From: a virus
Taxonomy: Duplodnaviria; Heunggongvirae; Uroviricota; Caudoviricetes
Direction: 5' to 3' (one strand)
Virus record (IMG/VR): IMGVR_UViG_2703718827_000002
Span: 1 to 50,082 of that record
Length of the DNA stretch: 50,082 nucleotides
Under the pieces are notes generated by a model that did no database searches, had not been told where the DNA came from, and saw only the letters and a program-made list of their open reading frames with translations. The translations under genes were made by a program, and so were the position numbers. Positions within the stretch are counted from its first letter, which is position 1; every line of letters begins with the position of its first letter. Shown in pieces: positions 791 to 22,995 of the stretch.

Positions 791-929
791 CGGCCATACA
801 TAGGCAGATTTTCGAGTCTGCCCATTTATGACAACCGGCGGCCATCCACCGCCCATTGAAACACTGAATAAATGCGTTGAAGTCTTGTATTAACCGTTCC
901 GTTCGCCGCGATAAGGCCAAGAGGAAATC

Positions 930-1255: not shown

Positions 1256-1325
1256 CCACCCTATTCAACCGATCGGCCTGGCATTACGCGGGCGGGATCT
1301 GCACATCCAAATTTCAGGAGAAACC

Positions 1326-2297
1326 ATGAGCGAAGTAACGGATTTAGTCGTCATTGAGAAACAGAACGCAATGGCGGTATTCACCACCAAAGAGCAGCTC
1401 GACCCTATTATTGAGGCGATCGAGAAAGAAGCTCGCAGCCTGGTACCGGATGTGTCGACCCGCAAAGGCCGCGACGCGATCGCATCCATGGCGCATAAGG
1501 TTGCCCGCTCCAAAACCTATATCGACAACGCCGGCAAGGATCTGGTTGCCGAGCTTAAAGCCCTGCCGAAGCAGATCGACGAAAGCCGCCGCATTGTGCG
1601 TGAGAGGCTGGACGCGCTGAAGGATGAAGTACGGCGCCCACTTACCGAATGGGAAGCCGAGCAGGAACGTATTAAGGCTGAAGAAGCCATGAACGCGATG
1701 CACGCCGAAGCACTGGTGATGAACGAGAGCATCGATTTGCAGCGGGCTATTCAGTTCGAAGCGGACCACGAAATGGCTCTGCTGATGAATAAGGATTTTG
1801 ACCGGGACCGCGAAGAGCAGCGCCGCCTGGCGGAACAGGCTCAACGTGAGCATGAAGAGCGCATTAAGAGTGAAGCGGCAGAGCAAGCCCGACGCGATGC
1901 CGAAGCGAAGCACAAAGCAGAAATTGAAGCCGCAGCGCGCCGTGAAGCTGAAGAGAAAGCGCGTGCAGAGCTGGCGGAACGCCAGCGCATTGAAGCGGAA
2001 CAGCGTGCGACACGCGAGAAGAAGGAAGCAGAAGCCCGGGCGGAAAGAGAAAAAGCTGCGGCAGTGGAAGCTGAGCGCCACAAGGCAAAACAGGCCGAAG
2101 ATGCTCGCCTGGCCGAAGAGAAGCGCCTCGCCGATGAACAGGCAAAGCGCGAAGCTGACGTGAAGCACCGCAAGACGGTCGGCACCAACATCGTTAACGC
2201 GCTCACCAGCCACACCAGCTTAACCCGCGAACAGGCTATCGAAGTGCTCACCGCACTTAAAGACGACCTAATCCCCTGCGCAAAAATTCATTACTGA
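1326..2297 (+). CDS. Coiled-coil phage protein with long Glu/Arg/Ala/Lys-rich region
   Basis: AGGAGA RBS; 323 aa; central charged low-complexity segment; sits upstream of the gam/bet/exo cluster. Confidence 0.6.
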   Translation: MSEVTDLVVIEKQNAMAVFTTKEQLDPIIEAIEKEARSLVPDVSTRKGRDAIASMAHKVARSKTYIDNAGKDLVAELKALPKQIDESRRIVRERLDALKDEVRRPLTEWEAEQERIKAEEAMNAMHAEALVMNESIDLQRAIQFEADHEMALLMNKDFDRDREEQRRLAEQAQREHEERIKSEAAEQARRDAEAKHKAEIEAAARREAEEKARAELAERQRIEAEQRATREKKEAEARAEREKAAAVEAERHKAKQAEDARLAEEKRLADEQAKREADVKHRKTVGTNIVNALTSHTSLTREQAIEVLTALKDDLIPCAKIHY

Positions 2298-2304
2298 GGC
2301 AACC

Positions 2305-2589
2305 ATGAACGCATACCTCACTTACGACCGCATCGAAGATCGGCGCTGGGTTGAGCAGCAGCTCACCGACGAGAAGGAGAAGTGGATCGACGACCGGGCT
2401 CAGAAAATCATCGACATGATGCCAAAAGAGCCGTCCGGCCTCTTCCACTTCACGGTCCCGATTGACTCCAGCCCATACGAAGGACTTCGCAGCGATAAAG
2501 CTGGCGAGGCTTACAACGATTTCATTTCGGCAGTTGCTTACGCCCAAGCGGAATACGACTGGGAACACCGTACCGGCTGCCCGTTTTAA
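2305..2589 (+). CDS. Gam-like protein (possible RecBCD inhibitor), short form
   Basis: N-terminus MNAYLTYDRIEDRRW resembles lambda GamS MNAYYIQDRLEAQSW; lies immediately upstream of bet/exo; C-terminus diverges. Confidence 0.45.
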   Translation: MNAYLTYDRIEDRRWVEQQLTDEKEKWIDDRAQKIIDMMPKEPSGLFHFTVPIDSSPYEGLRSDKAGEAYNDFISAVAYAQAEYDWEHRTGCPF

Positions 2590-2607
2590 TTTTTGAGGGG
2601 ATTAACG

Positions 2608-3453
2608 ATGGCAAACGAATTAACAATCACAGCGACGTCGCTTCAGGAGATAGGCGTCGACGTCTCCACCTGGAGCGCGCTGAAGAACAGCATCTACCCT
2701 GGCGCCAAAGACGAATCGGTAATGATGGCGCTTGATTACTGCCGCGCCCGCCAGTTGGATCCGTTGCTCAAACCTGTCCACCTCGTTCCGATGTACGTCA
2801 AAGACTCGAAAACAGGTAAAGGTGACTGGCGCGACGTGGTCATGCCTGGCATCGGGCTTTACCGCATTCAGGCAGACCGTTCCGGCGATTATGCCGGGGC
2901 TCGCGAGCCTGAGTTCGGGCCAGACACGACGCAGACACTTTCTGGTGTCGAGGTGACCTTCCCTCAGTGGTGCAAATACACCGTCTACAAGCGCATGCCC
3001 AGCGGCGAGATCGTCGAGTTCAGCGCCAAAGAATACTGGATTGAAAACTATGCCACCGCCGGCCGCGACACCACGGCGCCGAATGCAATGTGGAAAAAGC
3101 GCCCATACGGCCAGCTGGCGAAATGCGCAGAAGCCCAGGCGTTGCGTAAGGCATGGCCTGAGATTGGACAGCAGCCTACCGCCGAAGAAATGGAAGGCAA
3201 ATCACTGGACGTTGATATCCGTGACGTCACGCCGCGCAACACCACTGAAGCACTTCCACCAGCAGCAAGCGAAGAAACGCTGCAGGCGATAACCGATCTC
3301 TTAACGACACTGGATAAAGACTGGGAGAAAGACTTCCTCCCTGTGTGCAGAGACATCTTCAAACGGCCAATTCTTGAGGCGTCAGACCTCACTGAAGAAG
3401 AGGCACAGAAAGGGTTCAACTTCCTTCAGAAAAAAGCTAAGGCGGCAGCATGA
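2608..3453 (+). CDS. bet: RecT/Red-beta family single-strand annealing protein (Bet-like)
   Basis: C-terminal region closely matches lambda Bet (recalled); ATG at 2608 with GAGGGG RBS (track start 2593 is TTG); stop overlaps exo. Confidence 0.8.
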
Positions 3454-4130
3454 CACCCGAAATTATCCTGTCCCGGACTGGCATTGACGTAACCACGATC
3501 CAACAGGGCGACGAGGCATGGCACCGGCTGCGTCTCGGCGTCATTACTGCCTCTGAAGTGCATAACGTCATTTCCAAGCCGCGCTCCGGCACCAAATGGA
3601 CGGGCATGAAGATGTCCTACTTCCACACCCTACTCGCCGAGGTATGCACCGGCGTAGCACCAGAGGTTAATGCCAAGGCGTTGGCCTGGGGCAAGCAGTA
3701 CGAGGAAGACGCCCGCACCCTCTTCGAGTTCACCACTGACGTGAAAGTCACGGAGTCTCCGATCCTGTTCCGTGACGAGAGCATGCGCACCGCGTGCTCC
3801 CCTGACGGCCTTTGCAGTAACAATTTCGGCCTTGAGCTGAAATGCCCGTTCACCTCCCGCGACTTTATGAAATTCCGCCTCGGCGGTTTCGAAGCCATTA
3901 AGTCCGAGTACATGGCCCAGGTGCAGTACAGCATGTGGGTGACCGGAAAAGACGCCTGGTTCTTTGCCAACTACGACCCGCGCATGAAGCGCGAAGGTAT
4001 TCACCACGTCGTCGTTGAGCGGGACCCGCAGTACATGACCGATTTCAACGAAATGGTGCCGGAGTTCATTGAGAAGATGGACGAGGCGCTGGCAGAGATC
4101 GGCTTCACGTTCGGGGAACAGTGGAAATGA
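3450..4130 (+). CDS. exo: Lambda-type 5'-3' exonuclease (Red-alpha / YqaJ family)
   Basis: Sequence is near-collinear with recalled lambda Exo (MTPDIILQRTGIDV..., [24 protein letters not shown]). Confidence 0.9.
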
Positions 4131-4555
4131 AACGCACACCCTTTTACCGCCGGCCAGGGCGAACCGGGAAATTCTCCGGCCTCCGTGAGCGTGTTATCTG
4201 GATGATTCAGACGCGCGGCCGCCCGGTAACCGGCAGCGAAATCGCCGAGAAGTTTGGCGTAACGCTCATCGAGTTTAACCGGGTCGCCAACGGCATTACC
4301 CGCGGCACCGGGCAGATAGCGCAGGTCGTTGAGTCGAAAAAGTGGATCAACGAGGACGGCATTTGCGACCGGACATTCGACCTCGTCACGAAGCCTAAGG
4401 TCGTAACACCACAGGGCAAATCACGGCTATTCACCCGGCGCGCCATTGAGCAATCGCAGGAAGGCCGACGGCAGGAGTGCATTGAACGTGCCGCCCGCCG
4501 TAGTCGCCTGATTGCTCAGGGCCTCTACATCGACGAAATGGAGTCAGTGCTATGA
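4127..4555 (+). CDS. Hypothetical phage protein (142 aa)
   Basis: ATG at 4127 overlaps exo stop (ATGA); track ORF 4121..4555 starts at GTG. Confidence 0.5.
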
Positions 4556-4719
4556 AAGCGTGGTCTCTCGAAGAGCTGGCGCTGCTGTGGCGACACACAA
4601 ACGCTGAAGTCGCCGAGATTACTGTCCGCTGCATTGAAGAGGTAGGAGATAAGCGGCTGCAAACCAATATTGAGCGTAATGGCTGGGATGTAAACGATCC
4701 GGAGCGGGAGGCTGCATGA
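4552..4719 (+). CDS. Small hypothetical protein (55 aa)
   Basis: ATGA overlap with upstream stop; uninterrupted ORF; below track cutoff. Confidence 0.35.
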   Translation: MKAWSLEELALLWRHTNAEVAEITVRCIEEVGDKRLQTNIERNGWDVNDPEREAA

Positions 4720-4853
4720 CCGAAGGTATTGATCAGCTTATTTATAACGACGAGTTTCCCGGGATTGCGTACAACAAATTTACCGCCAGTTCTTTGGAAG
4801 GAAAAGTGGAAACCCGATCGGCAGGATGCACAGCAAGGGTTACTGGCGAATAG
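4716..4853 (+). CDS. Small ORF (45 aa), possibly the displaced 5' portion of the HNH gene
   Basis: ATG overlaps upstream stop; ends 28 nt inside the HNH ORF in another frame. Confidence 0.25.
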   Translation: MTEGIDQLIYNDEFPGIAYNKFTASSLEGKVETRSAGCTARVTGE

Positions 4854-5209
4854 CTTGCGGCAAGAAGTGCTATCTCGCCCATCGGCTGGCTTGGTTCTTC
4901 TGTTATGGGGTTTGGCCCAAAGAGATTGACCATATCGACAATAACAAGCTCAACAACTCCATCGGCAACCTACGTGAAGTCACCCACCAACTTAATCAAT
5001 TAAATATGCCACTGCGCAGTAATAACACGAGCGGTGTGAAAGGGGTTAATTGGGATAAGCATCGTAAGCGGTGGCGCGCCAGGGTGATTATTAACGGCAA
5101 GTATTTCACTGCCGGACACTTCAAGGAAATTGCAGATGCCGAGGTGGCAATCAGGGCACTCCGCGAGCAAGTCCATGGAGAATTTGCAAATCATGGGGGC
5201 AAGTCATGA
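4826..5209 (+). CDS. HNH homing endonuclease with AP2-like DNA-binding domain
   Basis: AHRLAW and IDHIDNNKLNNSIGNLR HNH motifs followed by SGVKGVNWDKHRKRWRARVIINGKYF AP2-like segment; upstream in-frame sequence also looks HNH-like. Confidence 0.7.
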   Translation: MHSKGYWRIACGKKCYLAHRLAWFFCYGVWPKEIDHIDNNKLNNSIGNLREVTHQLNQLNMPLRSNNTSGVKGVNWDKHRKRWRARVIINGKYFTAGHFKEIADAEVAIRALREQVHGEFANHGGKS

Positions 5210-5424
5210 CATCTGAAACAGACAACGCCGTACGCGCCGCCTGCCGCCGCTGCACCGAGGAAATCCAGCAGGCCATGCGCAAGAAGCCAAAGCCAAACTG
5301 GAACGAAACGGTGCCTCCAATCATCAACAAGCATCACAAGAAAATTGAATCTCTGGGAGTTAGCCTCCTGGAGTTTGTCGTCAAAACTGGCCGCCTTAAC
5401 GGGCGGTTTGGAGCCGAACAATGA
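5206..5424 (+). CDS. Hypothetical phage protein (72 aa)
   Basis: ATG overlaps HNH stop; GGGGG RBS. Confidence 0.45.
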   Translation: MTSETDNAVRAACRRCTEEIQQAMRKKPKPNWNETVPPIINKHHKKIESLGVSLLEFVVKTGRLNGRFGAEQ

Positions 5425-5515
5425 CAACAAAATTCCCCGGGTCGCTAAGTCGGCCCTTTTTATTGCTGGCGTTCACCTTCAACCGAATTAACCGACAGTT
5501 CCGGGAGCATTGACC

Positions 5516-5734
5516 ATGGACATCATCGACACAGCAGCAGAGATTGAAGAGCTTCAGCGTAACGCTGCCCTTTCCGCTCACCGCCTCAACCGTAACGCCG
5601 TATCAGCTGAGCGTTGTGAAGAATGCGACGAACCAATTTCCGAGCCGCGGCGCTCTGCCGTTCCCGGTTGCCAGACGTGCGCGGATTGCCAATCCGTCAT
5701 CGAGCTGAAGAATAAGCAGAGGGGAATCCAGTGA
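5516..5734 (+). CDS. TraR/DksA-family C4 zinc-finger protein
   Basis: CEECDEPI...CQTCADCQ four-cysteine motif near C-terminus; ATG at 5516 with GGGAG RBS (track start 5510 is TTG). Confidence 0.7.
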   Translation: MDIIDTAAEIEELQRNAALSAHRLNRNAVSAERCEECDEPISEPRRSAVPGCQTCADCQSVIELKNKQRGIQ

Positions 5735-6402
5735 AAGAGCGCGGAATGATTTTTAACGGCGAGATGGTGCGCGCCATCCTCGACGGCCGGAAGACGCAGA
5801 CGCGGCGCATCATGAAAATTCAGCCGTCTGATGGCTTCCACCCAACGCATAACGGTTACGATCTGGATTTAAACGCACACTGGTACACGCCTGGCGTGGT
5901 CGATAAAAACGGATACCTGCAGCCTGCAAAGAAAGATGTGTTTGGCGTTGCAGATGAGAATGAAGGCTACACCTGCCCGTTCGGTGCCGTCGGCGATCGC
6001 ATCTGGGTGCGCGAAACGTGGGCTGAAGCTGGTGCTGGCGCGCCGGACCTGAAACTTTATCGCGCGGATTATCCTGAGCACCTTCCAACTCATTACGAGA
6101 ATGTGCCGCCGGCTGATGAAATACGCTGGACGCCTTCGATTCACATGCCGCGCTGGGCCAGTCGTCTAACTCTGGAGATTACCGGCGTGCGTGTTGAGCG
6201 ACTTAGAGATCTGAGTGAGGACGATGCAAAGTCAGAAGGCATTACGCCGCCTTCCGGCGGGGTTCTTCCCGGATGGGAATATCGCATTAACTTCCGTGAC
6301 CTTTGGATGAGCATCTACGGTGCCGACAACTGGGAAGCTAACCCATGGGTTTGGGTTATCGAATTTAAGGTGGTGCCCAATGTTCAGGATAATCCAGCCT
6401 AA
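5731..6402 (+). CDS. ASCH-domain (PUA-like) protein
   Basis: N-terminal MIFNGEMVRAILDGRKTQTRR and C-terminal PWVWVIEFK resemble the ASCH signature (as in E. coli YqfB); GTG at 5731 overlaps upstream stop with AGAGGGG RBS; ATG at 5746 is an alternative start. Confidence 0.5.
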   Translation: MKERGMIFNGEMVRAILDGRKTQTRRIMKIQPSDGFHPTHNGYDLDLNAHWYTPGVVDKNGYLQPAKKDVFGVADENEGYTCPFGAVGDRIWVRETWAEAGAGAPDLKLYRADYPEHLPTHYENVPPADEIRWTPSIHMPRWASRLTLEITGVRVERLRDLSEDDAKSEGITPPSGGVLPGWEYRINFRDLWMSIYGADNWEANPWVWVIEFKVVPNVQDNPA

Positions 6403-6619
6403 TACCTGGTACGCCGATGATTTCGGCGCGCCATGCAAAATCCTCCGCGCTACCCACGAAGTAATCCACTACATCCGCAACGGCCGCACCTGCATTGCCA
6501 GCATGGGCCGCTTTAATCAGGATTTCGAGCCGCTGACCAAAGCAGAGGCCGAGCGGATCGCTGAAGAAATCGAAACAGCAGAACACCTGAAGAAGCTGCG
6601 TGCCCATCGCGCGGCGTAA
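6380..6619 (+). CDS. Hypothetical phage protein (79 aa)
   Basis: ATG at 6380 with AAGGTGG RBS inside track ORF 6320..6619. Confidence 0.45.
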   Translation: MFRIIQPNTWYADDFGAPCKILRATHEVIHYIRNGRTCIASMGRFNQDFEPLTKAEAERIAEEIETAEHLKKLRAHRAA

Positions 6620-6627
6620 GGAGAACT

Positions 6628-6858
6628 ATGAGCACCATTCAGGACATCCTAAACCAGCTATCAACCCTGGTCACCGAGGCGCACAAAGTGGCGTGCTCAC
6701 TCGATATTGGTGATGAGCGAACCGAGGCTTTCGAGCTATACGAAGCGCTTCGTCGACTTCAGCGGCAGGGCGCCGCCGGAGAGATTCTCTCAGCAACCAA
6801 CCCTCTTCTCGCCTCGCCATATTACGACGAGGACTGGGACGAAGATGGAGACGACTGA
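6628..6858 (+). CDS. Hypothetical acidic protein (76 aa)
   Basis: AAGGAG RBS; Asp/Glu-rich C-terminus. Confidence 0.45.
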   Translation: MSTIQDILNQLSTLVTEAHKVACSLDIGDERTEAFELYEALRRLQRQGAAGEILSATNPLLASPYYDEDWDEDGDD

Positions 6859-6923
6859 CGCAACTGATAGCCAGTTATGAGCTGGCTATTGGGTGCGAAT
6901 GCACTGCCACGTTATCCCCCTTT

Positions 6924-6950
6924 CAGCCCTCCATTGCGAGGGCTTCTTTT
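6924..6950 (+). terminator. Rho-independent terminator
   Basis: AGCCCTC-cattgc-GAGGGCT hairpin followed by TCTTTTT. Confidence 0.6.
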
Positions 6951-6965
6951 TGCCTGGAGACAGCT

Positions 6966-7181
6966 ATGAATGACAGTATCCTGCTTACCAGTGACGTACT
7001 GGCTCGCTATAAGATTTCCCGGAGCACTCTGTATTTCTGGAGCACCCCGGAGCGAATGCCTGCTGGCTTCACCTGCCCTTTCCCCAAACCAACAATCCCC
7101 GGCAACCCAAAACGCTGGAGAGAGTCGGAGATCGTTTCGTGGGAAATGCAGGTCAACGCCTCTAAAGCTGATACCCAATAA
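6966..7181 (+). CDS. AlpA-family excisionase / phage regulatory protein
   Basis: 71 aa; LARYKISRSTLYFW helix-turn-helix typical of AlpA/Xis-like proteins; convergent with and overlapping the 3' end of the integrase. Confidence 0.6.
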   Translation: MNDSILLTSDVLARYKISRSTLYFWSTPERMPAGFTCPFPKPTIPGNPKRWRESEIVSWEMQVNASKADTQ

Positions 7182-8343
7182 TGCTCTGCAGGTGATTCTG
7201 CCAAATACCCAACCACTCGCGCTGGTCATCCATATAGTCGTGCAGGTTGTATCTGGCCATCACCCCACCCATCTGATGACCAAGCAGCTTTTCAATAACA
7301 TGCGGTGGCGCGCCAAGTTCTGACAACCTGGTTGCAACGGTGCGCCTCAGGTCATGCAGAGACCACTGTTTCATGTCTGTCTTTCTGATCACCTGCATGG
7401 AATAGGTCGAGACTAGGGCCTGAGTAGGTGGAATGTCTTCTTTATCTCGGAACTGAGCCGGTGTTAAAACGTGCTTAGTGACCGAACCTCTTTTATGCTC
7501 CTGAAGCAGCCTGATCGCCACTTCAGGCAATGCCCTCCTGATCGTCTTCCCTGTTTTGTAATCCTCAGCCGGTACCGTCCAGGTCTTTTCATTAAAGTTG
7601 TACCAGTCCCAGCGCGATTTCCTTATTTCTGCAGCCCTGCACCCAGTCAGGAGCATGAACCGTATAACAAGTTGCTGTGATGGAGGGAGCGCGAAAAGTG
7701 TATCCCAAACCACTTTGATCTCTTCGTCGGAGAGTCGCCTCTCCTTCATCTTCGCTGCAATACCAACGTCTGATCTGCGCAAGGATTCAAGCGGGTTGTT
7801 TTTAATTACCCCTCGGTTATGGCAGAACCGGAACGCGCGCTTCATTAATGACAGCATCTCACCAGTAATAACCGAACGCCCCATCTCGTCGAACACATCA
7901 AGCCAGTTAGCCTTGAACGTCTGATCAACCATCGCCCTGCCAATGCGCGGGCTAATGTGCTTCTGAAAGCTCCTGGTATTGGCATCGATTTTGATCAGAC
8001 CCTCGGGAATGCAGTAATGCTTTACCCAGTACTCATACGCCTGGTCAACCGTTAGCGCCTCTATCCTTTCTGCTTTCTCAACCAGAACCTTCTGGCGTGG
8101 ATCGTAACCCTCACTCAGCCAGGCGCGAAACTGCTGCCTGCGGTCTCTTGCCTGCGCTAATGAATAGGCTGGGTATTCACCTATACTGAGTTGCACCGGC
8201 TTACCCTGCCAGCGATAACGGTAGAAGAAAGTTACGCCACCAGTTATGCTTAACCTGACATTAAGCCCGTTTGAATCTGAGAGAACTTCCACACTCTCTC
8301 TGCGCTTACCAAGCGCCTTACGAAGTTTTGTATCTGTGAGCAT
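7162..8343 (-). CDS. int: Tyrosine integrase (P4-type)
   Basis: C-terminal catalytic region with HDLRRT...LLGH...Y; N-terminal MLTDTKLRKA typical of P4-like integrases; ATG at 8343 with AGGGG RBS (track start 8352 is GTG). Confidence 0.85.
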   Translation of the reverse strand: MLTDTKLRKALGKRRESVEVLSDSNGLNVRLSITGGVTFFYRYRWQGKPVQLSIGEYPAYSLAQARDRRQQFRAWLSEGYDPRQKVLVEKAERIEALTVDQAYEYWVKHYCIPEGLIKIDANTRSFQKHISPRIGRAMVDQTFKANWLDVFDEMGRSVITGEMLSLMKRAFRFCHNRGVIKNNPLESLRRSDVGIAAKMKERRLSDEEIKVVWDTLFALPPSQQLVIRFMLLTGCRAAEIRKSRWDWYNFNEKTWTVPAEDYKTGKTIRRALPEVAIRLLQEHKRGSVTKHVLTPAQFRDKEDIPPTQALVSTYSMQVIRKTDMKQWSLHDLRRTVATRLSELGAPPHVIEKLLGHQMGGVMARYNLHDYMDDQREWLGIWQNHLQSIIGYQL

Positions 8344-8645
8344 CGTGTACACCCCTGAGCCATGTACTCAGCAGTGTACACAAAACACGTAAATTGCAAC
8401 CATACAAAATAAAACACGTTAAAGAGTTATAAACAATGAAGTGAGTAACGGCGCGGTTTTGGCGGGAATAATTTTAAACGCAATAAAACACGATAAAGCA
8501 GAACTCGTTGAAGTATTATGCCTCAGGAAGATAAATCCTAACCAGACTGCCAGTCCTTCGGGGCTGGCGCTGTATCTCCTCTGTTCTCCTCAGGAAAATC
8601 ATAGTAGCATCGCGCCTGTGATTTTCCTTTTAAGTCGGTTTTACC

Positions 8646-9044
8646 ATGTCTACAACACATAACGTCCCTCAGGGCGATCTTGTTTTACGTACTTTAGCCA
8701 TGCCCGCCGATACCAATGCCAATGGTGACATCTTTGGTGGTTGGTTAATGTCACAAATGGATATTGGCGGCGCTATTCTGGCAAAAGAAATTGCCCACGG
8801 TCGCGTAGTGACTGTGCGGGTTGAAGGAATGACTTTCTTACGGCCGGTTGCGGTCGGCGATGTGGTGTGCTGCTATGCACGCTGTGTCCAGAAAGGGACG
8901 ACATCGGTCAGCATTAATATTGAAGTGTGGGTGAAAAAAGTAGCGTCTGAACCAATTGGGCAACGCTATAAAGCGACAGAAGCATTATTTAAGTATGTCG
9001 CGGTTGATCCTGAAGGAAAACCTCGCGCCTTACCTGTTGAGTAA
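8646..9044 (+). CDS. yciA: Acyl-CoA thioesterase YciA
   Basis: 132-aa product matches recalled E. coli YciA along its length. Confidence 0.85.
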   Translation: MSTTHNVPQGDLVLRTLAMPADTNANGDIFGGWLMSQMDIGGAILAKEIAHGRVVTVRVEGMTFLRPVAVGDVVCCYARCVQKGTTSVSINIEVWVKKVASEPIGQRYKATEALFKYVAVDPEGKPRALPVE

Positions 9045-9047
9045 TAG

Positions 9048-9080
9048 TCAAAAGCCTCCGGTCGGAGGCTTTTGACTTTC
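9048..9080. terminator. Bidirectional terminator between convergent yciA and tonB
   Basis: Long inverted repeat TCAAAAGCCTCCG / CGGAGGCTTTTGA with A/T runs on both sides. Confidence 0.7.
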
Positions 9081-9083
9081 TGC

Positions 9084-9803
9084 TTACTGAATTTCGGTGG
9101 TGCCGTTAATTTTAAACAGGATATTCACCACAATCCCACTGCCTGGCTTACCCGGCTCATAACGCCATCTGCGCATCGCATTTTTCACCTCACGCTCAAA
9201 CATGTTCGCAGGCTTGGCTGAGAGGATTTGTACGTTATCCACGCGACCATCCGGCGTAACGTCAAATTTAACTTTAACCTGCCCTTCAATGCGCAATGCC
9301 TGTGCTCGTGCCGGATACTGCGGCTGATTACGGCTTAATGCGCGTGGTCCTGAAGCCACACTGGTAACCGGCTTGCTGGTTGCAGCCGTTGCTGTACTTG
9401 ATGTCAGGCGTGCCGGTGCCGTATTTTCAAACGGTGATGCCGGACGCGACTCTACGGGTTTGACATCGCGTTTTGGCTGCTCCTGTACCTTTTTCACCGG
9501 CTTCGGTTTTGGCTTAGGTTTCGGCTTCGGCTTTTCAATGACCACCGGTGCTTCTTTTGGCGGTTCGGGGATCGGCTCAGGTTCCGGTTCTGGCTCTACC
9601 ACCGGCTCCGGTGGCGGCTGAACGGCTTGTGGCGGTTCGAGATCAGCAGGCGTAACCATCGTGACAGAAATCGGCTGCGCAGGCGCAGGTAGTTCAATAA
9701 CCTGATGTACCGAGGTATAGAGCAGACCCGCCACAACAGCACCATGAATGCAGACCGAAAGTAACGTCGGCCAGGGGAAGCGGCGAGGTAAATCAAGGGT
9801 CAT
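9084..9803 (-). CDS. tonB: TonB energy-transducing protein
   Basis: MTLDLPRRFPWPTLLSV..., (EP)n and (KP)n repeats, C-terminal domain; 239 aa from ATG at 9803 (track ORF extends upstream to 9854). Confidence 0.9.
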   Translation of the reverse strand: MTLDLPRRFPWPTLLSVCIHGAVVAGLLYTSVHQVIELPAPAQPISVTMVTPADLEPPQAVQPPPEPVVEPEPEPEPIPEPPKEAPVVIEKPKPKPKPKPKPVKKVQEQPKRDVKPVESRPASPFENTAPARLTSSTATAATSKPVTSVASGPRALSRNQPQYPARAQALRIEGQVKVKFDVTPDGRVDNVQILSAKPANMFEREVKNAMRRWRYEPGKPGSGIVVNILFKINGTTEIQ

Positions 9804-10026
9804 TGAAGTCATAATCATTTCAGTAGAAAAACCAGGTCTCGATTTTAAATGCAAATAGCAATCATATTCAATAAGGCAAGACGATCAGGATCAGTGAAAA
9901 TGTCATTTTTGGCGTAATTACCCTTACTTTATGCATGGCCTTAACAAAGACATCATCTTTCCGTTGCAGATCTTCGCCCTTTCAAATAACGTACTTTACA
10001 ACTTTCCCGAACAAGGAGTTGTGCCC

Positions 10027-10323
10027 GTGTTGTATGTTATTTACGCTCAAGACAAAGCTGATAGCCTCGAAAAACGCCTTTCCGTTCGTCCGGCACATTT
10101 AGCACGTTTACAGTTACTGCATGATGAAGGTCGTTTGTTGACAGCTGGTCCAATGCCAGCGGTAGACAGTAACGATCCAGGGGCTGCGGGATTTACTGGC
10201 TCAACCGTTATTGCTGAATTTGAATCGCTGGAAGCAGCTCAGGCCTGGGCCGATGCTGACCCGTACGTAGCGGCAGGAGTCTATGAACACGTTTCAGTGA
10301 AACCATTTAAGAAAGTGTTCTAA
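10027..10323 (+). CDS. yciI: YciI-like protein
   Basis: 98-aa product from GTG start matching the recalled yciI neighbour of tonB; track ORF 9931..10323 extends upstream. Confidence 0.7.
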
Positions 10324-10387
10324 TTTATTAGAAATTTGCACTTAAATCAAAAAGTTACGGACAATTCAACCACCAATCAATAAATTA

Positions 10388-10430
10388 AAGGGCACATTAA
10401 AGTACACAATATTTGTGCCCTTCTCTGTTT
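10388..10430. terminator. Hairpin between yciI and the invertase gene (possible bidirectional terminator)
   Basis: AAGGGCACA ... TGTGCCCTT inverted repeat with T-rich flanks; loop is long, so weaker. Confidence 0.35.
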
Positions 10431-10441
10431 CTTTCCCGTTA

Positions 10442-10990
10442 TCAGCTAGCTGGAAACTTTTTATACAGAGTTGAGAGCCCTACTCCATACGTTTTTGATA
10501 CGCTTTGTCGTGATTCACCGGTTGCCATCCGCTCCCCCATTTCCCGCCATTGCTCATCCGTGAACTTAGGCCTGCGACCACCAACTCGCCCTTTTGCCCT
10601 GGCTACGGCCAGCCCTGCTAAGGTACGTTCGCTATTAAGATCAGATTCATATTGTGCTGCGGAAAGGATGTTACGAAAGTTATAGCGGCCGCTGGCTGTT
10701 TTGAGATCCACGCCATCGGTAATACTGCGGAAGTTGATACCCTTTTCCTGTAACTGCTGGAACATCAACAGCGCATGCAGAACGTTGCGGCCTATCCTGT
10801 CCAGCTTCCAGACCACCAGTTCATCCCCCGGCTGCATAGTGGCGATCAGCCGTTTTAGAACCGGCCGATTCGATTTCCTCCCGCTGGCATGCTCTTCAAA
10901 AATTTTCTCACAACCCGCTGACTTGAGCGCCGTTAGTTGCAATTCAGTGTCCTGGTGGTTTGTTGATACTCGGGCATAACCGTAAATCAT
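10442..10990 (-). CDS. Serine recombinase, Hin/Gin/Pin-type DNA invertase
   Basis: MIYGYARVSTNHQD...VVWKLDRIGR...C-terminal HTH GLSTLYKK; 182 aa; typical resolvase/invertase catalytic domain. Confidence 0.85.
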   Translation of the reverse strand: MIYGYARVSTNHQDTELQLTALKSAGCEKIFEEHASGRKSNRPVLKRLIATMQPGDELVVWKLDRIGRNVLHALLMFQQLQEKGINFRSITDGVDLKTASGRYNFRNILSAAQYESDLNSERTLAGLAVARAKGRVGGRRPKFTDEQWREMGERMATGESRQSVSKTYGVGLSTLYKKFPAS

Positions 10991-11194
10991 GAGTGCTTCT
11001 CCTGTTGTAAAAACAGGAGAAGAGGCGAAATATCACCTGATTCAGAAAAATATTTGAAAGGTTGGTTTGGGAGAAGCGGCAAAACGGGATGTGGGAACAG
11101 GGGAAAATCAGATACCGGATATGGCTTTTTTTGCCAGTGGTGATGGATGGATGAAATTACCCAACGGTAAAATCCTGCAATATGGTCGAGGTGC

Positions 11195-11418
11195 GGTTAC
11201 GCCGCCGAGGTATCGATACAATTGTGTTATGTGGGATCTCGACCAATATCGGTGTTGAATCCACCGCCCGCAATGCCTGGGAACTTGGCTTTAATCTGGT
11301 GATTGCCGAAGACGCCTGTAGTGCCGCCAGCGCCGAGCAACACAATAACAGCATTAATCATATCTACCCGCGCATCGCCCGTGTGCGTAGCGTGGAAGAG
11401 ATCCTTCACGCGTTATGA
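11195..11418 (+). pseudogene. yecD: 3' fragment of isochorismatase-family gene yecD
   Basis: Only the C-terminal ~75 codons ([18 protein letters not shown]...RVRSVEEIL) are present; the upstream in-frame sequence is unrelated; stop overlaps the yecE start. Confidence 0.6.
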
Positions 11419-11520
11419 TTTACATCGGTCTGCCGCAATGGTCGCATCCTAAATGGGTGCGGTTGGGGATCACCAGCCTTGAAGAGTATGCCCGTCACTT
11501 TAACTGCGTGACGCGGGCAT
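11415..11520 (+). pseudogene. yecE: 5' fragment of yecE, truncated at a prophage junction
   Basis: [32 protein letters not shown] matches the recalled YecE N-terminus for about 35 codons, then diverges into AT-rich phage-end sequence. Confidence 0.6.
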
Positions 11521-11638
11521 TTTAAAAATCACTAAAGAACGCCCAAGAGCATGTGTTTTCTTTAGTTTATTCAATGCATTAAAAAATAGTTTCGCATGAA
11601 ATTCGGTAAACTTCATGTGTGCAATAATGTCCCATTCA

Positions 11639-11690
11639 TGCCCCAAAATGCCCCAAAGCAGACATTTTTGCCCCAAGTATGCCCCACAAG
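11639..11690. repeat. Four direct TGCCCCA(A/C)A repeats with helical phasing
   Basis: Copies start at 11639, 11649, 11669 and 11680 (spacings 10, 20, 11 bp), about 120 bp inside the yecE junction. Confidence 0.6.
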
Positions 11691-12012
11691 TCACGTCTTC
11701 AAGTCGTCTATATCCATAGCACACCGAGTTACATTCTTGCATCCGGGGTGTCGACAATACCTACTTTATTGAGTGTGCGAGAATTACCAGGAACCTTTCC
11801 ACAATGTAGTAGTCTAATAGTCGAATCCATCTAACATTAAGAAGCGTTATGATCACTATCCTCTCATTGATATCTTCTGTAATAGTCACTCTATGTATCA
11901 TGGTGTTCGCTACAGTAAAGGTAGGGATTGGTTTGTCTAACAATCCAGACAGAAATGATAATTAACCTCAACCACGTAACCCCACTTCATACTTCACTTA
12001 ACAGTGATGTGC

Positions 12013-12402
12013 TCACATCACCGGGCAATCATCAAACTCTGCATTCCTGGCGTCATTGATGATGTAAGTAAGCACCCCAAATACAGCGGGTGCAGAACTG
12101 TAACCGCCATCATCTACTGGCAGCGCCTCCTTTCTCCCGTTCTCCAGATTAACGAGGTGGGGTTGAGGATGTGTCCGATATCGCTTGATCCTAAATTCTC
12201 CGTCTATCGCGCAGATCAGCAGCGAGCCATCACAGGCTGAAAGTGAGGCATCAACAACAAGCAGCGCCCCCTGAATTATCCCTTCCCTGAAATGTGAACG
12301 CGATGCACGCATGAAATAAGTCGCTGCGGGCTGGCTGATTAACTGCTGATCGAGGGAGATTCGTGTTTCAACATAATCTGCAGCAGGTGAAGGAAAGCCC
12401 AT
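12013..12402 (-). CDS. UmuD'-like protein (HumD-like, lacks the UmuD N-terminal autocleavage segment)
   Basis: Begins MGFPSPAADYVE, matching the UmuD' N-terminus after the Cys24-Gly25 cleavage site; AAGGAG RBS before ATG 12402; no umuC partner in window. Confidence 0.65.
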   Translation of the reverse strand: MGFPSPAADYVETRISLDQQLISQPAATYFMRASRSHFREGIIQGALLVVDASLSACDGSLLICAIDGEFRIKRYRTHPQPHLVNLENGRKEALPVDDGGYSSAPAVFGVLTYIINDARNAEFDDCPVM

Positions 12403-12490
12403 GATCTGCACTCCTTTCACTGTTTTTATATACAGTAGTTTTAATGTGAGTGCAGATCAATGTGGAGACACCTATCAATACCGCCAGGAG

Positions 12491-12784
12491 TTAAAGGGCG
12501 GCGACAAAATACACGGCGGTGCAGGCCAGAACCGGAACGAGCCAGTCCAGCAGGCTGGGCAGATTCCATACGCGCAAGGAGAACCCGCCCCACCACGGCA
12601 TATTGGCCCGTTTTCCGCCGCCGAACTGTGCGATCCAGCGATACTCTGCCTGGGTGTGCTCGCGGGCTATAAACCACATGCAGCCTATCGCGCCGCCAGC
12701 ACCCCACATCCCAGAAACCAGTCCGACAGCGCATTGAAGGGTTACGGCTATGGCAGCGTGTACAAACGGAGAAAAATCAGCCAT
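12491..12784 (-). CDS. Small membrane protein (97 aa)
   Basis: ATG at 12784 overlaps the tailspike stop; hydrophobic segments with Gly/Trp-rich motif. Confidence 0.45.
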   Translation of the reverse strand: MADFSPFVHAAIAVTLQCAVGLVSGMWGAGGAIGCMWFIAREHTQAEYRWIAQFGGGKRANMPWWGGFSLRVWNLPSLLDWLVPVLACTAVYFVAAL

Positions 12785-15113
12785 GGATTGCTCCCTCCAG
12801 CGCCTCAACACGCTTTAACAACCGCGCATAATTGCGGCGCTGAAGCTCCGCCTCAAGCGCGAAGGCTTCTTCATAACGAATACCATATTTAGAACCAGCC
12901 TTCCTCGCGGGTGTGATAACTTCTGAATAAGCAGCACTTCCTGGCTGAACCAGATTCCCGTTAGCATCATAAAGATCTGGCGTTGCTTCATAATGCTGAA
13001 CTACTTCCCCCTGATCTCCCCATTCGTCATAGCAGGCGAATCCGAACTCGAAGGCATCAAGACCATAACGCGCAAATGCCTCAACAGCACGCTGGGCAAC
13101 AATGCCAAAATGCCACCTCGCGTCTTCACCTTTCTCTTCCACCCTGTCCAGAAATTTATATTGGCACCATTTTACTTCCGACCACGCATCCAGCATTGCG
13201 TCAGAAATCTCTAATGGGGAAGTTTTGGAACGTTCATCAGAAGTTACTGTGAAAGCGGTCTGGGTAAATCCACCGGACCATGCAGCGCCCGATACTCCGC
13301 AACTATAGGCGTTCGTTGTGGATGGCCGGATTGTTTTGGTGACCACCTCCCTGAATGTTGACTCCATGATCGCGTCATTTGCCACCCCGTCAGCACCACC
13401 GATAAAACGCAGAACTCCGCTGGCTGTCGTGGTATCCAGACCAGTATGCACACGCAACTGCCTGACCCCAGCCATGCCGGGTCTTGCGAGTTTAATATCT
13501 CCAGTAAGGAATGCGTTATTGTCAGAATCCAGCAACCAGTATTTGGTATTAGTGCCGTTATCAACGATGTCATTAGCCAGGGTCATGCCAATGCGCTGAT
13601 TACCAAATACCTGGTTGTTAACTGCACCGGTCGCTATCACTACACCGCGAGTTAATCCACTTGAAATAGGGTTAGAAATTGTATTATTGGATGCAGATCG
13701 TGTAGCTGACGTATTCCGTCTCAGTCGGGTATGAGTTGCATCTTTTGTGAACCCGGTGAGCAGGACATCATTCGATGAAAGGACGTTTTCATTCGAGCAA
13801 ATATCGAACGCAACGTACGGTTTGCTTTCATCCCCTGGCTTGTTATAGACGATACAGAAGTTATTGGCGATCTTGCAGTGGTTGCTTCCTAATCCTGTTC
13901 CCTCGCCAAGTTCAACCGCTGAAATTGAAGTGTTGAAGTGGTTACCGAGGACGAAAATCATATTCCCGCCGGTATCATGGGAAACGATACCTCGCTGTCC
14001 GGCAATGATATGGTTAAACGCCACCGTGACACCTTCGGCTCCACTTGTAAAATCGAGGAAGTCCAGGAAATCACTTGCGCAGCCGTTCGTGAAATTAATA
14101 TCCCTCGATTGGTTCGTTAATCGTATACAGCAATTGGTTGGTACAGCATCAAGGCCACTCATGGAGCAGTGATCCATAAACACCTGGCTTGCTTTATCCA
14201 GGTGCACACAGCAGTCCCAACCAAAGGCTCCAGTTTCGTCAGTAGCAAAAAGAACGTCCGTAAGTTTCAGCTGTTCGCCGTATTTAGCCGTGTGTGTCCC
14301 GGTAAATTTCAGCGCGGTAGCATTCCGGTTTCCCCTGGTGCGTAAAGACGTATTAACAATCCGCATCGCTTTGCGGGTGCCGGATATCGAGGAGTTATCG
14401 ACAACGATACCGAGCCCTGCTTCGAATATAATCCCTGTCTGGCCCTGCCCTAAGCCAAAGACATCTGAAATAAACGCAGTAAGGGTTATGTTGCTCGCAC
14501 AGGTATACAGACGCGATAATTTTACGCCGACCCCCATGGCTTTTGCTGCACTAAATGCGTCGATGAGAGCCTGGGTATCAGCAGCCGAAATGGTATCCAG
14601 AGCGCCGTACATTTCAGGCGATACGAACGGAGTTTCTTTGTAAACGTTTGACTGCCTGATCCCAACAAGCCCCGCACCACTGGACGCGGCCAGTTCCTGG
14701 CGCAAAGCTGCATCTCCAACGCTGACAAAATGAACAGCATCATTTGCCCAGGATGCTGCGTCATTACCAGTAGTGGTGTACGGGATGCTGGTTGCTGCAG
14801 TTAGTTTCCAGAGCTCATCCTGATAACGAATGAGCTCGTTATAGTCAGTGATTGTCAAAGGTCCATCGGTGTATTCACCAATAACCTTGTACCCCGAACT
14901 TTGAATAAAATTATTAAACCGCTGCTGCTGGTTGAGCAACTGAGCTGAAAACTCTTGCTCCATGCCCCAGAATGTTTTTCGACTTTTACCAAAACGATCC
15001 AACCAAATTAGCTGCGTAATATCGTTTACAGCAAAGTCCATGTTCTGGGCATTATCGAAAAGGTCCTTCGGATCCATGGACCCTATCGGGTTATTCGTGG
15101 CGTATGTGGTCAT
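12777..15113 (-). CDS. Tailspike / side tail fibre with C-terminal intramolecular chaperone (peptidase S74-like) domain
   Basis: C-terminal SDERSKTSPLEISDAMLDAW...HFGIVAQRAVEAF matches the S74 chaperone signature; central region has beta-helix-like repeats; ATG 15113 with GGAG RBS (track start 15128 sits in the terminator). Confidence 0.7.
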   Translation of the reverse strand: MTTYATNNPIGSMDPKDLFDNAQNMDFAVNDITQLIWLDRFGKSRKTFWGMEQEFSAQLLNQQQRFNNFIQSSGYKVIGEYTDGPLTITDYNELIRYQDELWKLTAATSIPYTTTGNDAASWANDAVHFVSVGDAALRQELAASSGAGLVGIRQSNVYKETPFVSPEMYGALDTISAADTQALIDAFSAAKAMGVGVKLSRLYTCASNITLTAFISDVFGLGQGQTGIIFEAGLGIVVDNSSISGTRKAMRIVNTSLRTRGNRNATALKFTGTHTAKYGEQLKLTDVLFATDETGAFGWDCCVHLDKASQVFMDHCSMSGLDAVPTNCCIRLTNQSRDINFTNGCASDFLDFLDFTSGAEGVTVAFNHIIAGQRGIVSHDTGGNMIFVLGNHFNTSISAVELGEGTGLGSNHCKIANNFCIVYNKPGDESKPYVAFDICSNENVLSSNDVLLTGFTKDATHTRLRRNTSATRSASNNTISNPISSGLTRGVVIATGAVNNQVFGNQRIGMTLANDIVDNGTNTKYWLLDSDNNAFLTGDIKLARPGMAGVRQLRVHTGLDTTTASGVLRFIGGADGVANDAIMESTFREVVTKTIRPSTTNAYSCGVSGAAWSGGFTQTAFTVTSDERSKTSPLEISDAMLDAWSEVKWCQYKFLDRVEEKGEDARWHFGIVAQRAVEAFARYGLDAFEFGFACYDEWGDQGEVVQHYEATPDLYDANGNLVQPGSAAYSEVITPARKAGSKYGIRYEEAFALEAELQRRNYARLLKRVEALEGAIHG

Positions 15114-15127
15114 GCTCGCTCCGGGCA

Positions 15128-15150
15128 TAAAAAAACCCGCCGAAGCGGGT
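15128..15150 (-). terminator. Rho-independent terminator between the J-like gene and the tailspike
   Basis: On - strand: CCCGC-TTCG-GCGGG followed by TTTTTTT. Confidence 0.65.
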
Positions 15151-15170
15151 AAGATAATTTTGATTTGCAG

Positions 15171-18100
15171 TTAAGCGACGTTGCCGGGATAGGTAGCGTC
15201 GTCGTAGGCGTACTTTCCTGGGTGGTACTGGATGGCCGTCACCTGGCTGATACCGTCATTGCCCGGAGATATTTCCCCTATCAGTGCGTCGTACGGCACA
15301 CGCACAGACGAGCAGAACAGCAGGCGTGGCGGTTCAATGTACGCGTCATTCATCGCCCACAATTCCGGCTCCAGCGTGGAGCTGTACGGCACCGAGATAG
15401 TGAAGTCGTCAATGCGTGTCGGCACCAGCATGGCTGATGCCCTGCCGTCCTGGTGGCGAATAATCACGCGCGGGCTTTGGAACGACCAGTCCGGTGACTC
15501 GCTGAGCGTCAGCGTGATTTTGCTGCTGTCATACTTCATATCCGTAATCAGGCAGCTCAGCTGCTGACCGCCGGGGATATCGTCGGCCAGCACAATGCGA
15601 TCCATGAACTCATAACAAAGCGCATCCATCTCGGTTGAGGTGGTGTGCTGCAGGCGCTGCAGCTGGTAGCCCAGCAACCGGCGCATGCCGATGCGGTAGG
15701 CGCGGTCTTCATCCAGAACGCCATCCAGCGTGTAGCTCTCAATTTTCAGCGGTGTTGGATTGCCTGGCTGCCGGCACTGCACGGTTTCCTCTGCCCAGGT
15801 GGTGCCGTTGATATAGGTCACGTCCACGCCGTCGTAGTCGTCCTGCGACGGGGCTTTGAAAGCGGTCTGCAGCTCCTCGGTGGTTTCCTGCGGGGTGATC
15901 ATGCCGACCCAGGGTTTAATGCCTTCCCTGCCGGCAGAAGCCAGGCCGTCAGACAGCAGGAAATACCCCATCCCGGCGTTAGTGATTTGCTGCAGTACCT
16001 CGAGTGCTGATTTGCTCTCACCGCTCGCCCAGTCGAACTTCTCACCGCGTGGCGTCCAGTAGGTTTGCTCCAGCGCGTCAATCGCCGCCGTGTCAATCTG
16101 GCTGGTCGTGAACCCCAGTGACTCCAAGACGTGGTAAAGCGCACCACTGATGCTCCGCGCCGTTCTGCCGCCGCTGTAAATCCGGGTTGGCGTGACGCTA
16201 ATCCGGCGATCGGACATGGCCGCCAGGCGGTTCCCTGTCCGCACGGTCAGCGCCATGGTGGTGACGCCATCGTACTTTGTTGGGCGTTTGCTCAGCCTGG
16301 AGCGCAGCGCCTGCCAGAATACCTGGTCGCGAGTGCTGCCCCCTTTAACCGGTTCGGTGCGACGCATCCGGATCTCATACTGCCCGGGTGACACGTTGTA
16401 GCGATGTGTAAACCCAATCTGGTTCTCGGTGCTACGGGAATAGAACGGAGACTGTTGCTGCCAGGTGGTGGTGCCAACCTTGCGATACTGGATCACCAGG
16501 CGTACCGGCATGGAACGCTTATTCCCCTGGTCGGTATAACGCACCAGGCCGCTCTGGAAGTTGATGTTCACCTCGAATGCGTCCAGCGTTTCGCCGTCCG
16601 GGCAGGCCAGGAACGGACCAACCCATTCGTAATCGTCGCTGACACCAGTCACGGTCGCATCCAGCAGCGTACGCTCAGTGAAGCCAGGCCACGATGGATC
16701 TGGAGTCGTGATGGTCTCACCGCCCGGGCCGATGGTGACCGTAAGCCGCTCAACCGTGACCGTCTGGCTGTCCACATCGGTGATACGGAACTGATTGCCA
16801 GACAATCCCAGAGAAAACCGCTGAATGCCCTCCGGCAGTCCGGTGAATGGGGTGCCAGTGGCGCTGTTGTAGGCCAGGGTAATGTGCGCCCTTACCTCCG
16901 CCGTGCCGCCCGTTGATTTCACGCCAGCCGTATTGACCGGCGCGTCGCCGAACACAGCAACGGGTAACGGGCTGTTAGTGATGGAACCGCCAGCGTACGG
17001 GCTGCTGGATTCGACGATTTCCAGCCGCCCGCTGTTATCGCGCGCGACCAGGCCTGAGCCGGAGAGCTGCGAGGTGATCGAGGAAACCAGTCCCGACATG
17101 GTGACGTAATTGGTAACCAGCGATACCGGGTAGGTCGTGCCCTGCCAGCTGATGCTGAACGTCACAGGCGTGCTGCTGAAATCGTAGGTCGTCGGTGCGG
17201 CACTCGCGGTGATGCTGGCGGCGCTACCGCCCACACCCGGCACCGGCGGAACTCCCGGGGCGTAGCTGGCGATCACCAGATCGTAGTCGTTGCCGTTATA
17301 GCTCAGGGACACCGGCATTCCGACCACTGGCGCCAGTTCCTCTACCCCGCCATAAATCACGCTGTAACCGCCGGACGACACGACCGTATAAGAGTTCGGC
17401 GCCAGCACGGTGATCACCGTTCCAACGGTCCACGACGGCGGGATCTCCTCATCGCCAGAAGACGATACGTCAACCAGCGTGATGGAGTTCCCGGACACTA
17501 CCAGCGCATCAGCGATAATACTGACCGTCTCCGGGCCGCTTGAGCCCAGATCCAGCCCGGCGGTACCGGAGCCGGTATTCCCGACCTCTGGTGAGTTGAA
17601 CCAGTTTTCAGTGCGCGTGTCGCCGGAGACCGTGGCGCCTGGTGGGTAGATGGTGTAACGCACGTCGGTGCCGAAGGCGGAGATCGGCGTATTGCCGATC
17701 CGGATATCGGACTGGTTAATCACCATGTCGCCGACACCCACACACAGGAACATGCTGGTTTCCATGCTGGTCTCGTTGACGAACCGGCTCACCGGCTGCA
17801 CCACGTAATCAGGCCAGACGCGATATTTGCCGAAGATTTCCCGAATGGGGTCTCCCAGTTTCGCAGCGTTCGCTTTTGCCGGGTTGAGGTCAATCTGGTC
17901 ACCGCTGGCCGCCTGGGAACCGCCGCCGCCTGCCTGCGACATGGTACTCATCATGTAGATGCTGTATGCAGCAGAGGCGACGGCTACGCTGACGGCAACC
18001 CAGATAGCGATTTCTGCACCGGTACCGTAGGGCACCGGATACATCCTGACGTCGGTTTCTCGTTTGATGACGCACAGTGGCCACTCTGACGCCGGGACGG

Positions 18101-18188
18101 GAAGTCCATTGATTTCAACCGCGACCGGGTGCTGCTGATCCGGTGTCCAGCCCTTCACGTTCTGCGTAAACCAAGCGCTGATGGTCAT
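15171..18188 (-). CDS. Host-specificity protein J-like central tail fibre
   Basis: About 1000 aa, position downstream of K-like gene; Gly/Ser/Thr-rich central region; ATG 18188 avoids overlap with the upstream gene (track start 18332 is GTG). Confidence 0.7.
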   Translation of the reverse strand: MTISAWFTQNVKGWTPDQQHPVAVEINGLPVPASEWPLCVIKRETDVRMYPVPYGTGAEIAIWVAVSVAVASAAYSIYMMSTMSQAGGGGSQAASGDQIDLNPAKANAAKLGDPIREIFGKYRVWPDYVVQPVSRFVNETSMETSMFLCVGVGDMVINQSDIRIGNTPISAFGTDVRYTIYPPGATVSGDTRTENWFNSPEVGNTGSGTAGLDLGSSGPETVSIIADALVVSGNSITLVDVSSSGDEEIPPSWTVGTVITVLAPNSYTVVSSGGYSVIYGGVEELAPVVGMPVSLSYNGNDYDLVIASYAPGVPPVPGVGGSAASITASAAPTTYDFSSTPVTFSISWQGTTYPVSLVTNYVTMSGLVSSITSQLSGSGLVARDNSGRLEIVESSSPYAGGSITNSPLPVAVFGDAPVNTAGVKSTGGTAEVRAHITLAYNSATGTPFTGLPEGIQRFSLGLSGNQFRITDVDSQTVTVERLTVTIGPGGETITTPDPSWPGFTERTLLDATVTGVSDDYEWVGPFLACPDGETLDAFEVNINFQSGLVRYTDQGNKRSMPVRLVIQYRKVGTTTWQQQSPFYSRSTENQIGFTHRYNVSPGQYEIRMRRTEPVKGGSTRDQVFWQALRSRLSKRPTKYDGVTTMALTVRTGNRLAAMSDRRISVTPTRIYSGGRTARSISGALYHVLESLGFTTSQIDTAAIDALEQTYWTPRGEKFDWASGESKSALEVLQQITNAGMGYFLLSDGLASAGREGIKPWVGMITPQETTEELQTAFKAPSQDDYDGVDVTYINGTTWAEETVQCRQPGNPTPLKIESYTLDGVLDEDRAYRIGMRRLLGYQLQRLQHTTSTEMDALCYEFMDRIVLADDIPGGQQLSCLITDMKYDSSKITLTLSESPDWSFQSPRVIIRHQDGRASAMLVPTRIDDFTISVPYSSTLEPELWAMNDAYIEPPRLLFCSSVRVPYDALIGEISPGNDGISQVTAIQYHPGKYAYDDATYPGNVA

Positions 18189-18250
18189 CTTTTCATGTTG
18201 ATGCGTTTCCAGCGGTTCGCCCGGCAACCGGGATGGATAGATTCGGATCG

Positions 18251-18637: not shown

Positions 18638-18640
18638 TTC

Positions 18641-19596: not shown

Positions 19597-19605
19597 GAGA
19601 ACTCC

Positions 19606-22980: not shown

Positions 22981-22995
22981 TTGCTATCTCCGGGC

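Follow-up and report, generated by a model that had tools for sequence, protein, structure and literature searches.

The stretch of DNA analysed here (termed the window) corresponds in full to a draft contig of 50,082 bp, LONM01000010.1 from assembly GCA_001575785.1, in which the Escherichia coli genes yciA, tonB and yciI lie between two arms of lambdoid phage DNA. The strain is very probably a double lysogen, with two prophages (termed here P1, on the left, and P2, on the right) occupying two neighbouring, unrelated attachment sites that flank yciA-tonB-yciI. The arrangement is ordinary: both sites are already known, and it involves no new mechanism or family. P1, whose tyrosine integrase is 393 amino acids (aa) long, would have used a 14-bp core within the final codons of yciB for recombination, thereby placing its integrase-proximal end against the yciB stop region and yciA. 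P2, a lambdoid phage of the phi80 attachment type, would have integrated through the att80 core, which is 17 bp long and overlaps the stop codon of yciI, thereby placing its late-gene end (i.e., the attP arm, pinL and the tail genes) after yciI. Both prophages have the same orientation, with late genes to the left and int to the right; in this strain, yciB should border the far end of P1, and an int80-kch junction the far end of P2.

Gene calls and Pfam matches were made for the contig, and near-identical annotated genomes were compared with it; the positions of all features are collected in Table 1. The gene order that an earlier reading of the bare sequence (termed here the original prediction) had described, namely int-yciA-tonB-yciI-invertase-yecD/yecE fragments, agrees with these calls and with the annotated relatives. 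The content it gave for the left arm (gam, bet, exo, xis and int) likewise corresponds to gamL, bet, exo, a xis-like helix-turn-helix (HTH) gene and int, these names coming from mapping onto the annotation of strain E3. The K-12 synteny that it gave was also correct: yciB and yciA are adjacent in the K-12 phi80 lysogen XL10-Gold, and yciI and kch are adjacent in strains E3 and LR-28.

Judged by its sequence, the right junction is the classic site-specific junction of phi80 at att80. It consists of the yciI-side attB flank, the 17-bp core and the phi80 attP arm: in alignments, the left flank corresponds to the empty site of strains E3 and LR-28, and the right flank to phi80 attP, this flank being identical as well to the junction in XL10-Gold. 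As a consequence of the join, the native TGA stop codon of yciI is swapped for a TAA supplied by the phage. In published work, att80 is placed at the end of yciI, and phi80 lysogens are detected by 'pinL-tonB' and 'kch-int' polymerase chain reactions (PMC5727415, PMC11148124). The likeness extends well past the core, with 95-98% identity to phi80 and mEp237 over positions 10302-11689 and with conserved gene order; in the phi80 genome (JX871397) this order is int, the attP core, an IHF site, pinL, a tail-collar pseudogene, an N-terminal DUF72 (yecE) pseudogene, a LexA box, dinI, a tail fibre gene and cor. Phage mEp237 shares the att80 stretch through the yecD/yecE fragment, and phages HK225 and mEpX1 share its attP-pin part.

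The same junction recurs in bacterial genomes. A 301-bp probe spanning it was matched, at a coverage of 80% or more, in 132 of the 5426 complete E. coli genomes in RefSeq, the best match having 100% identity, and the reciprocal int-core-kch junction is present in other lysogens (seven of the loci compared). The index of an assembly collection has the exact invertase protein in 8172 blocks, and the protein adjoins yciI in all ten of the places shown, where it is accompanied by several different phage bodies. The wild strain HH107 illustrates the whole layout: yciB-yciA-tonB-yciI is followed by pin, a tail fragment, an isochorismatase fragment, a yecE fragment, tail and head genes, a repressor gene, recET, int (397 aa) and kch-yciY-cls. 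Because kch there follows the prophage int 43 kb further on, it is merely displaced by one prophage length.

The left junction, to go by a comparison of occupied and empty sites, is a product of site-specific recombination at an attachment site distinct from att80. Here the phage arm is followed by the core ATGCCNCAGGAAGA and then by the yciB stop region and yciA. The 14-bp core was defined by comparing the empty K-12 site, both prophage junctions of LR-28 and the window; at the far junction in LR-28, yciB gains an alternative 3' end supplied by the phage, beside the late genes. A 300-bp probe across the junction is 100% identical to strain E3 and has high-coverage matches in at least nine complete genomes, with more divergent versions in others. 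Strain E3 carries the same prophage and junction at 99.9% identity over positions 6000-10325, with kch, cls and opp undisturbed past yciI. In all ten of the contexts shown, moreover, the exact 393-aa P1 integrase adjoins yciA.

Each prophage also occurs without the other. P1 is present by itself in the 110-kb contig PJGC01000016, which matches the window at 99.9% over 1632-10324, has kch directly after yciI and shares a frameshift in the HNH endonuclease gene that splits it into open reading frames (ORFs) of 45 and 127 aa (intact in strain E3, at 164 aa). Besides the window, only the assemblies PJGC01, DAIUZW01 and ERR3970282 were found to have this frameshift; the contig from the last of these, a read run, matches at 99.9% over 1253-10324 and ends at yciI, so that the att80 side lies outside it. 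P2 is present without P1 in the 330-kb contig BFJP01000002, which comes from a near-clonal host and is 99.994% identical over 8518-25113 (one mismatch in 16.6 kb); in it, yciB directly adjoins yciA, followed by yciC, ompW and trp. The other end of P2 has its twin in the complete genome LR134240, which is 100% identical over 35761-50082 (14,322 bp, zero mismatches) and which continues through a repeated module (termed R and described below), DUF1482, gam, recT, exo, DUF4060, int (397 aa) and the att80 core to kch. Since each prophage is thus found alone in close relatives, independent integration is the straightforward reading. The original prediction had coupled independent integrations with a deletion; the integrations are borne out by the canonical site-specific junctions, while the deletion is not, as the 1.8-kb yciA-tonB-yciI segment is intact and no host DNA is missing between the yciB stop region and the stop codon of yciI.

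These matches also bear on the suspicion, raised in the original prediction, that the arrangement is a misassembly, i.e., a chimeric contig fusing unrelated prophage and host pieces. Such an error might be suspected in a draft contig both of whose ends are phage DNA and whose double occupancy has no match among complete genomes. It is, however, extremely unlikely, given that both junctions are exact site-specific products, that probes of about 300 bp across each of them match finished genomes at 100% identity, that the stretches shared with the 330-kb and 110-kb contigs are reproduced there independently, and that the window has no internal repeat able to mislead an assembler.

Several observations nevertheless weigh against double lysogeny. 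The far ends of P1 and P2 lie beyond the contig, so that the yciB-P1 and P2-int80-kch junctions are not seen directly in this strain, and it is possible that P1 is no longer a full prophage but a truncated remnant. The join between the att80 module and the YnaM/S24 segment of P2 occurs in no complete genome; it is seen in about 20 contigs in all, each from a draft or short-read assembly. Finally, the two junctions occur together in none of the 5426 complete genomes. The single-site frequencies are 132 of 5426 (about 2.4%) for att80 and at least 9 of 5426 (at least 0.2%) for the P1 site, from which fewer than one double lysogen would be expected under independence; the absence of doubles is thus roughly what independent chance predicts.

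The feature that had suggested a rearrangement is the piece of yecD and yecE to the right of the invertase gene. This 323-bp stretch is 96.3% identical to yecD-yecE of K-12 at 1.951 Mb, and the original prediction considered it a possible breakpoint, inside yecD, of an inversion spanning the terminus. The same piece lies beside pinL and attP in the free phi80 genome (JX871397), as it does in mEp237, XL10-Gold and HH107. Because it is present, with its junctions, in phi80 virion DNA and in mEp237, it is not a chromosomal breakpoint, and the proposal of an inversion broken there is not supported.

Where the piece came from is suggested by its right-hand edge. The match to K-12 yecE breaks off at ...CACTTTAACTGCGTG, within the 21-bp core of yecE-integrating phages; the sequence beyond it resembles the phage arm of yecE prophages and is of a kind typical of their tail end. 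The core in the window differs from that of the prophage PPyecE by one mismatch and from the published core of PPompW by two. Positions 11197-12403 are collinear with the native yecD-yecE'-prophage junction at 99.2% identity in strain G3/10 and 94.6% in Nissle 1917, the G3/10-like stretch running 0.9 kb past the core through the 58-aa ORF, YnaM and the S24/HumD-like gene. On these alignments, the yecD/yecE piece therefore resembles a host-prophage junction preserved as a fossil. An ancestor residing in yecE may have excised imprecisely, taking with it about 0.3 kb of flanking host DNA, much as in the lambda bio-type transducing phages; the pin-attP80-int80 module would have been joined onto this yecE-derived ancestor later.

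A subtler terminus-spanning inversion, based on the same likeness, is mechanistically possible. In this alternative, the phage-borne yecD'-'yecE-core segment recombined homologously with a native yecD-yecE'-prophage junction, so that the right arm from about 11.2-11.7 kb onward would belong to a prophage in yecE. G3/10 indeed carries two such copies as inverted repeats about 750 kb apart, with the att80 junction at 2.83 Mb (+ strand) and the native yecD junction at 2.08 Mb (- strand); the high identity of its native junction to 11197-12403, and the lack in complete genomes of an att80 module joined to this segment, point in the same direction. Yet the very same join is found in about 20 contigs in all, including BFJP01000002, where the trp-ompW-yciB-yciA-tonB-yciI synteny is normal, and over its final 14.3 kb the right arm is 100% identical to the LR134240 prophage, which ends in int (397 aa), the att80 core and kch. 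The yecD/yecE fragment is, moreover, in virion DNA, so that no chromosomal event is required to account for it, and mosaic joints of this kind are common throughout the phage family to which P1 and P2 belong. An inversion of this sort is thus very unlikely, and integration of P2 at att80 is preferred.

The contig ends explain a further peculiarity, namely that the left arm seems to carry on where the right arm stops. Both ends fall within R, a module of about 724 bp common to P1-type and P2-type phages. In independent genomes (two P2-type loci and two P1-type loci with the same Nmad5 gene), R measures 724-732 bp and lies between the repressor gene and the early-left operon; in relatives it carries a 113-aa ORF, and it is present in many prophages of this mosaic family. 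A short-read assembler is expected to break at a repeat that, like R, occurs in two contexts, and R is likely to be a general cause of contig breaks in polylysogens. The left arm resembles a continuation of the right because the contig breaks inside R at both ends. The suggestion that the arms are parts of related lambdoid prophages is upheld, as both belong to one mosaic family, have the same orientation and are each bounded by a canonical site-specific junction. A single prophage wrapped around the host genes was considered and rejected, given that the contig breaks at both R boundaries and that each arm has a near-identical single-prophage counterpart. The contig continues unbroken across the P2 repressor region, so that P1 presumably has a different immunity region or none, which is consistent with superinfection by a heteroimmune phage.

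When the window was compared with itself, the contig ends did not overlap and the two arms had no repeat in common, the sole match being a 32-bp inverted repeat within the host segment; this excludes a simple circular contig whose ends overlap. A related alternative is that the contig represents a circular unit, about 50.7 kb in size, that closes through R, that is, either a looped-out hybrid phage circle with yciA-tonB-yciI or a collapsed tandem repeat. Such a unit would fit the proximity of the contig ends on the phage map (only about 600 bp of R apart), the direct orientation of P1 and P2, and a size near a lambdoid packaging limit. A unique circle, however, would have assembled through R, whereas the breaks at both R boundaries mean that the genome has two R contexts, and each junction and each prophage is known in an ordinary chromosomal context elsewhere. 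A circular origin of the contig is accordingly rated as highly improbable, and two chromosomal prophages remain the preferred explanation.

Table 1. Features of the window (positions count from its first base; aa, amino acids; blank cells, nothing recorded)
Feature	Position	Strand	Remarks
Module R, last ~96-104 bp	1..104		extent as predicted from independent genomes
P1 int-proximal (early-left) arm	1..8517		prophage integrated at yciB 3' end; further small genes after exo
Nmad5-like gene (P1)	100-768		
gamL (P1)	2305-2589		
bet/RecT (P1)	2608-3453		
exo/YqaJ (P1)	3450-4130		
HNH endonuclease, frameshifted (P1)	4716-5209		
xis-like HTH gene (P1)	6966-7181	+	convergent with int
P1 tyrosine integrase, 393 aa	7162..8343	-	Arm-DNA-bind_3 and Phage_integrase domains
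P1 attachment core, 14 bp, ATGCC(G/T)CAGGAAGA	8518..8531	+	in last codons of yciB
Residual yciB 3' end including stop	8518-8541		host homology begins at 8518
yciA (acyl-CoA thioesterase)	8646..9044	+	gene calls, annotated relatives
tonB	9084..9803	-	gene calls, annotated relatives
yciI	10027..10323	+	last codons and stop overlap att80 core
att80 common core, 17 bp, ATTTAAGAAAGTGTTCT	10305..10321	+	attR, late-gene-proximal; host flank left, phi80 attP arm right
pinL-type serine DNA invertase	10442..10990	-	Resolvase and HTH_7 domains; annotated pinL in phi80
Tail-collar/tail-fibre gene fragment	~11067..11187	+	phi80 and PGAP annotations; remnant of invertible segment served by pin
yecD/yecE stretch	11188..11510		323 bp
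yecD 3' fragment, last 231 bp	11188-11418	+	
yecE 5' fragment, first 96 bp	11415-11510	+	
21-bp att core of yecE-integrating phages, CCGTCACTTTAACTGCGTGAC	11492..11512	+	core described in Nakamura et al. 2021 (PMC8112680)
P2 body	11513..50082		58-aa ORF and YnaM near left end; head, terminase, lysis, Q and nin genes within
S24/HumD-like gene, 129 aa (P2)	12013-12402	-	between att region and tail fibre
Tail fibre (P2)	12777-15113	-	
TipJ (P2)	15171-18254	-	
Tape measure (P2)	19606-22980	-	
DnaB-like helicase (P2)	45761-47194	-	
cro-like gene (P2)	48872-49105	-	
cI-like S24 repressor (P2)	49147-49899	+	
Module R, first 23 bp	50060..50082	+	R mapped from independent genomes

In P2, the genes for the tail fibre, TipJ, the tape measure, head, terminase, lysis, Q/nin functions and DnaB-type replication all lie on the minus strand. 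For the tail fibre, the longest ORF (783 aa) had no match in an exact-protein look-up, while the called product of 778 aa was matched. The P2 repressor protein is common to prophages at att80, the yciB site, yecE, sbcB and an aldehyde-dehydrogenase site. The S24/HumD-like gene near the left end of P2 corresponds in relatives to an S24 family peptidase or to a HumD-family subunit of a translesion polymerase, and has no umuC-like partner adjacent to it.

The target of the invertase is degenerate in the window, consisting at 10996-11187 of short inverted repeats and the tail-collar fragment, a state also seen in phi80; where other att80 prophages carry the identical invertase, they retain full invertible tail-fibre cassettes, with Collar, Caudo_TAP and Gp53-like genes in both orientations. 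Within the host segment, the 32-bp inverted repeat (positions 9046-9077, 93.8% complementary) lies between the convergent genes yciA and tonB and is probably their shared bidirectional terminator.

This case serves as a caution for annotation: fragments of host genes beside a prophage end are not necessarily the sign of a chromosomal rearrangement. It also shows the stretch from ompW to kch to be a prophage hotspot with at least three separate insertion sites, PPompW inserting nearby at ompW (PMC8112680). In some P1-type strains, a gene for a 506-aa large serine recombinase lies directly past tonB, at the expected place of yciI (locus L011, 20522-20669; locus L032, 414-1934), which suggests that this short region is the target of yet a third kind of mobile element. 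The phi80 fragment ending in the yecE attachment core may itself be a molecular fossil of an imprecise excision followed by a swap of integration modules, and strains carrying both att80 and yecE prophages have inverted repeats straddling the terminus.

A more speculative consequence follows from the fact that the prophages on either side of tonB are in direct orientation and have in common not only R (about 724 bp) but also further near-identical stretches. By recombining with each other, P1 and P2 could loop out a hybrid phage circle of about 50.7 kb carrying yciA-tonB-yciI, the circularly permuted look of the contig could reflect such molecules in the sequenced culture, and the yecD/yecE-att segment carried by the phage could serve as a portable region of homology or attachment site; this set of ideas is very improbable. 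If it were true, the looped-out circle would be a natural tonB-transducing phage, and the chromosome left behind would be TonB-minus and resistant to TonB-dependent phages and colicins. The yecD/yecE-att segment, for its part, might then promote terminus-spanning inversions or secondary integration in strains with a yecE prophage.

Three known systems provide points of comparison. Large chromosomal inversions mediated by prophages were reportedly described in E. coli O157 by Iguchi and co-workers in 2006. As in those inversions, distant inverted homologous phage segments occur in strains with att80 and yecE prophages, such as G3/10; unlike them, the window has no reciprocal junction and no inverted core-gene context, and all of its junctions are site-specific. 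The prophage clusters of Nakamura et al. 2021 (PLoS Pathog, PMC8112680) likewise place several lambdoid prophages within a short region (ompW, yciB, yciI) and likewise include a prophage-borne 21-bp yecE attachment core of apparent host origin. In contrast to the prophage-in-prophage arrangement described there, however, P1 and P2 occupy two distinct chromosomal attachment sites; and in contrast to an attB within a prophage, the yecE-type core of the window is a host/phage hybrid junction rather than an intact attB, and no phage is inserted in it.

The closest comparison is with phi80 itself (Lula, JX871397) and with mEp237, HK225 and mEpX1, which share with P2 the 17-bp core over the yciI stop, the phage arm and pinL. 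With phi80, P2 further shares the tail-collar and yecD/yecE pseudogene fragments and the orientation, with tail genes beside yciI and int beside kch. Past position 11689, unlike phi80, the body of P2 continues without dinI or cor, and it has a different tail fibre, different head genes (a DUF1073 portal and DUF2213), replication genes of the DnaB type and a different repressor. As far as gene content can tell, P2 is a mosaic relative of phi80 with which it shares the integration module only.

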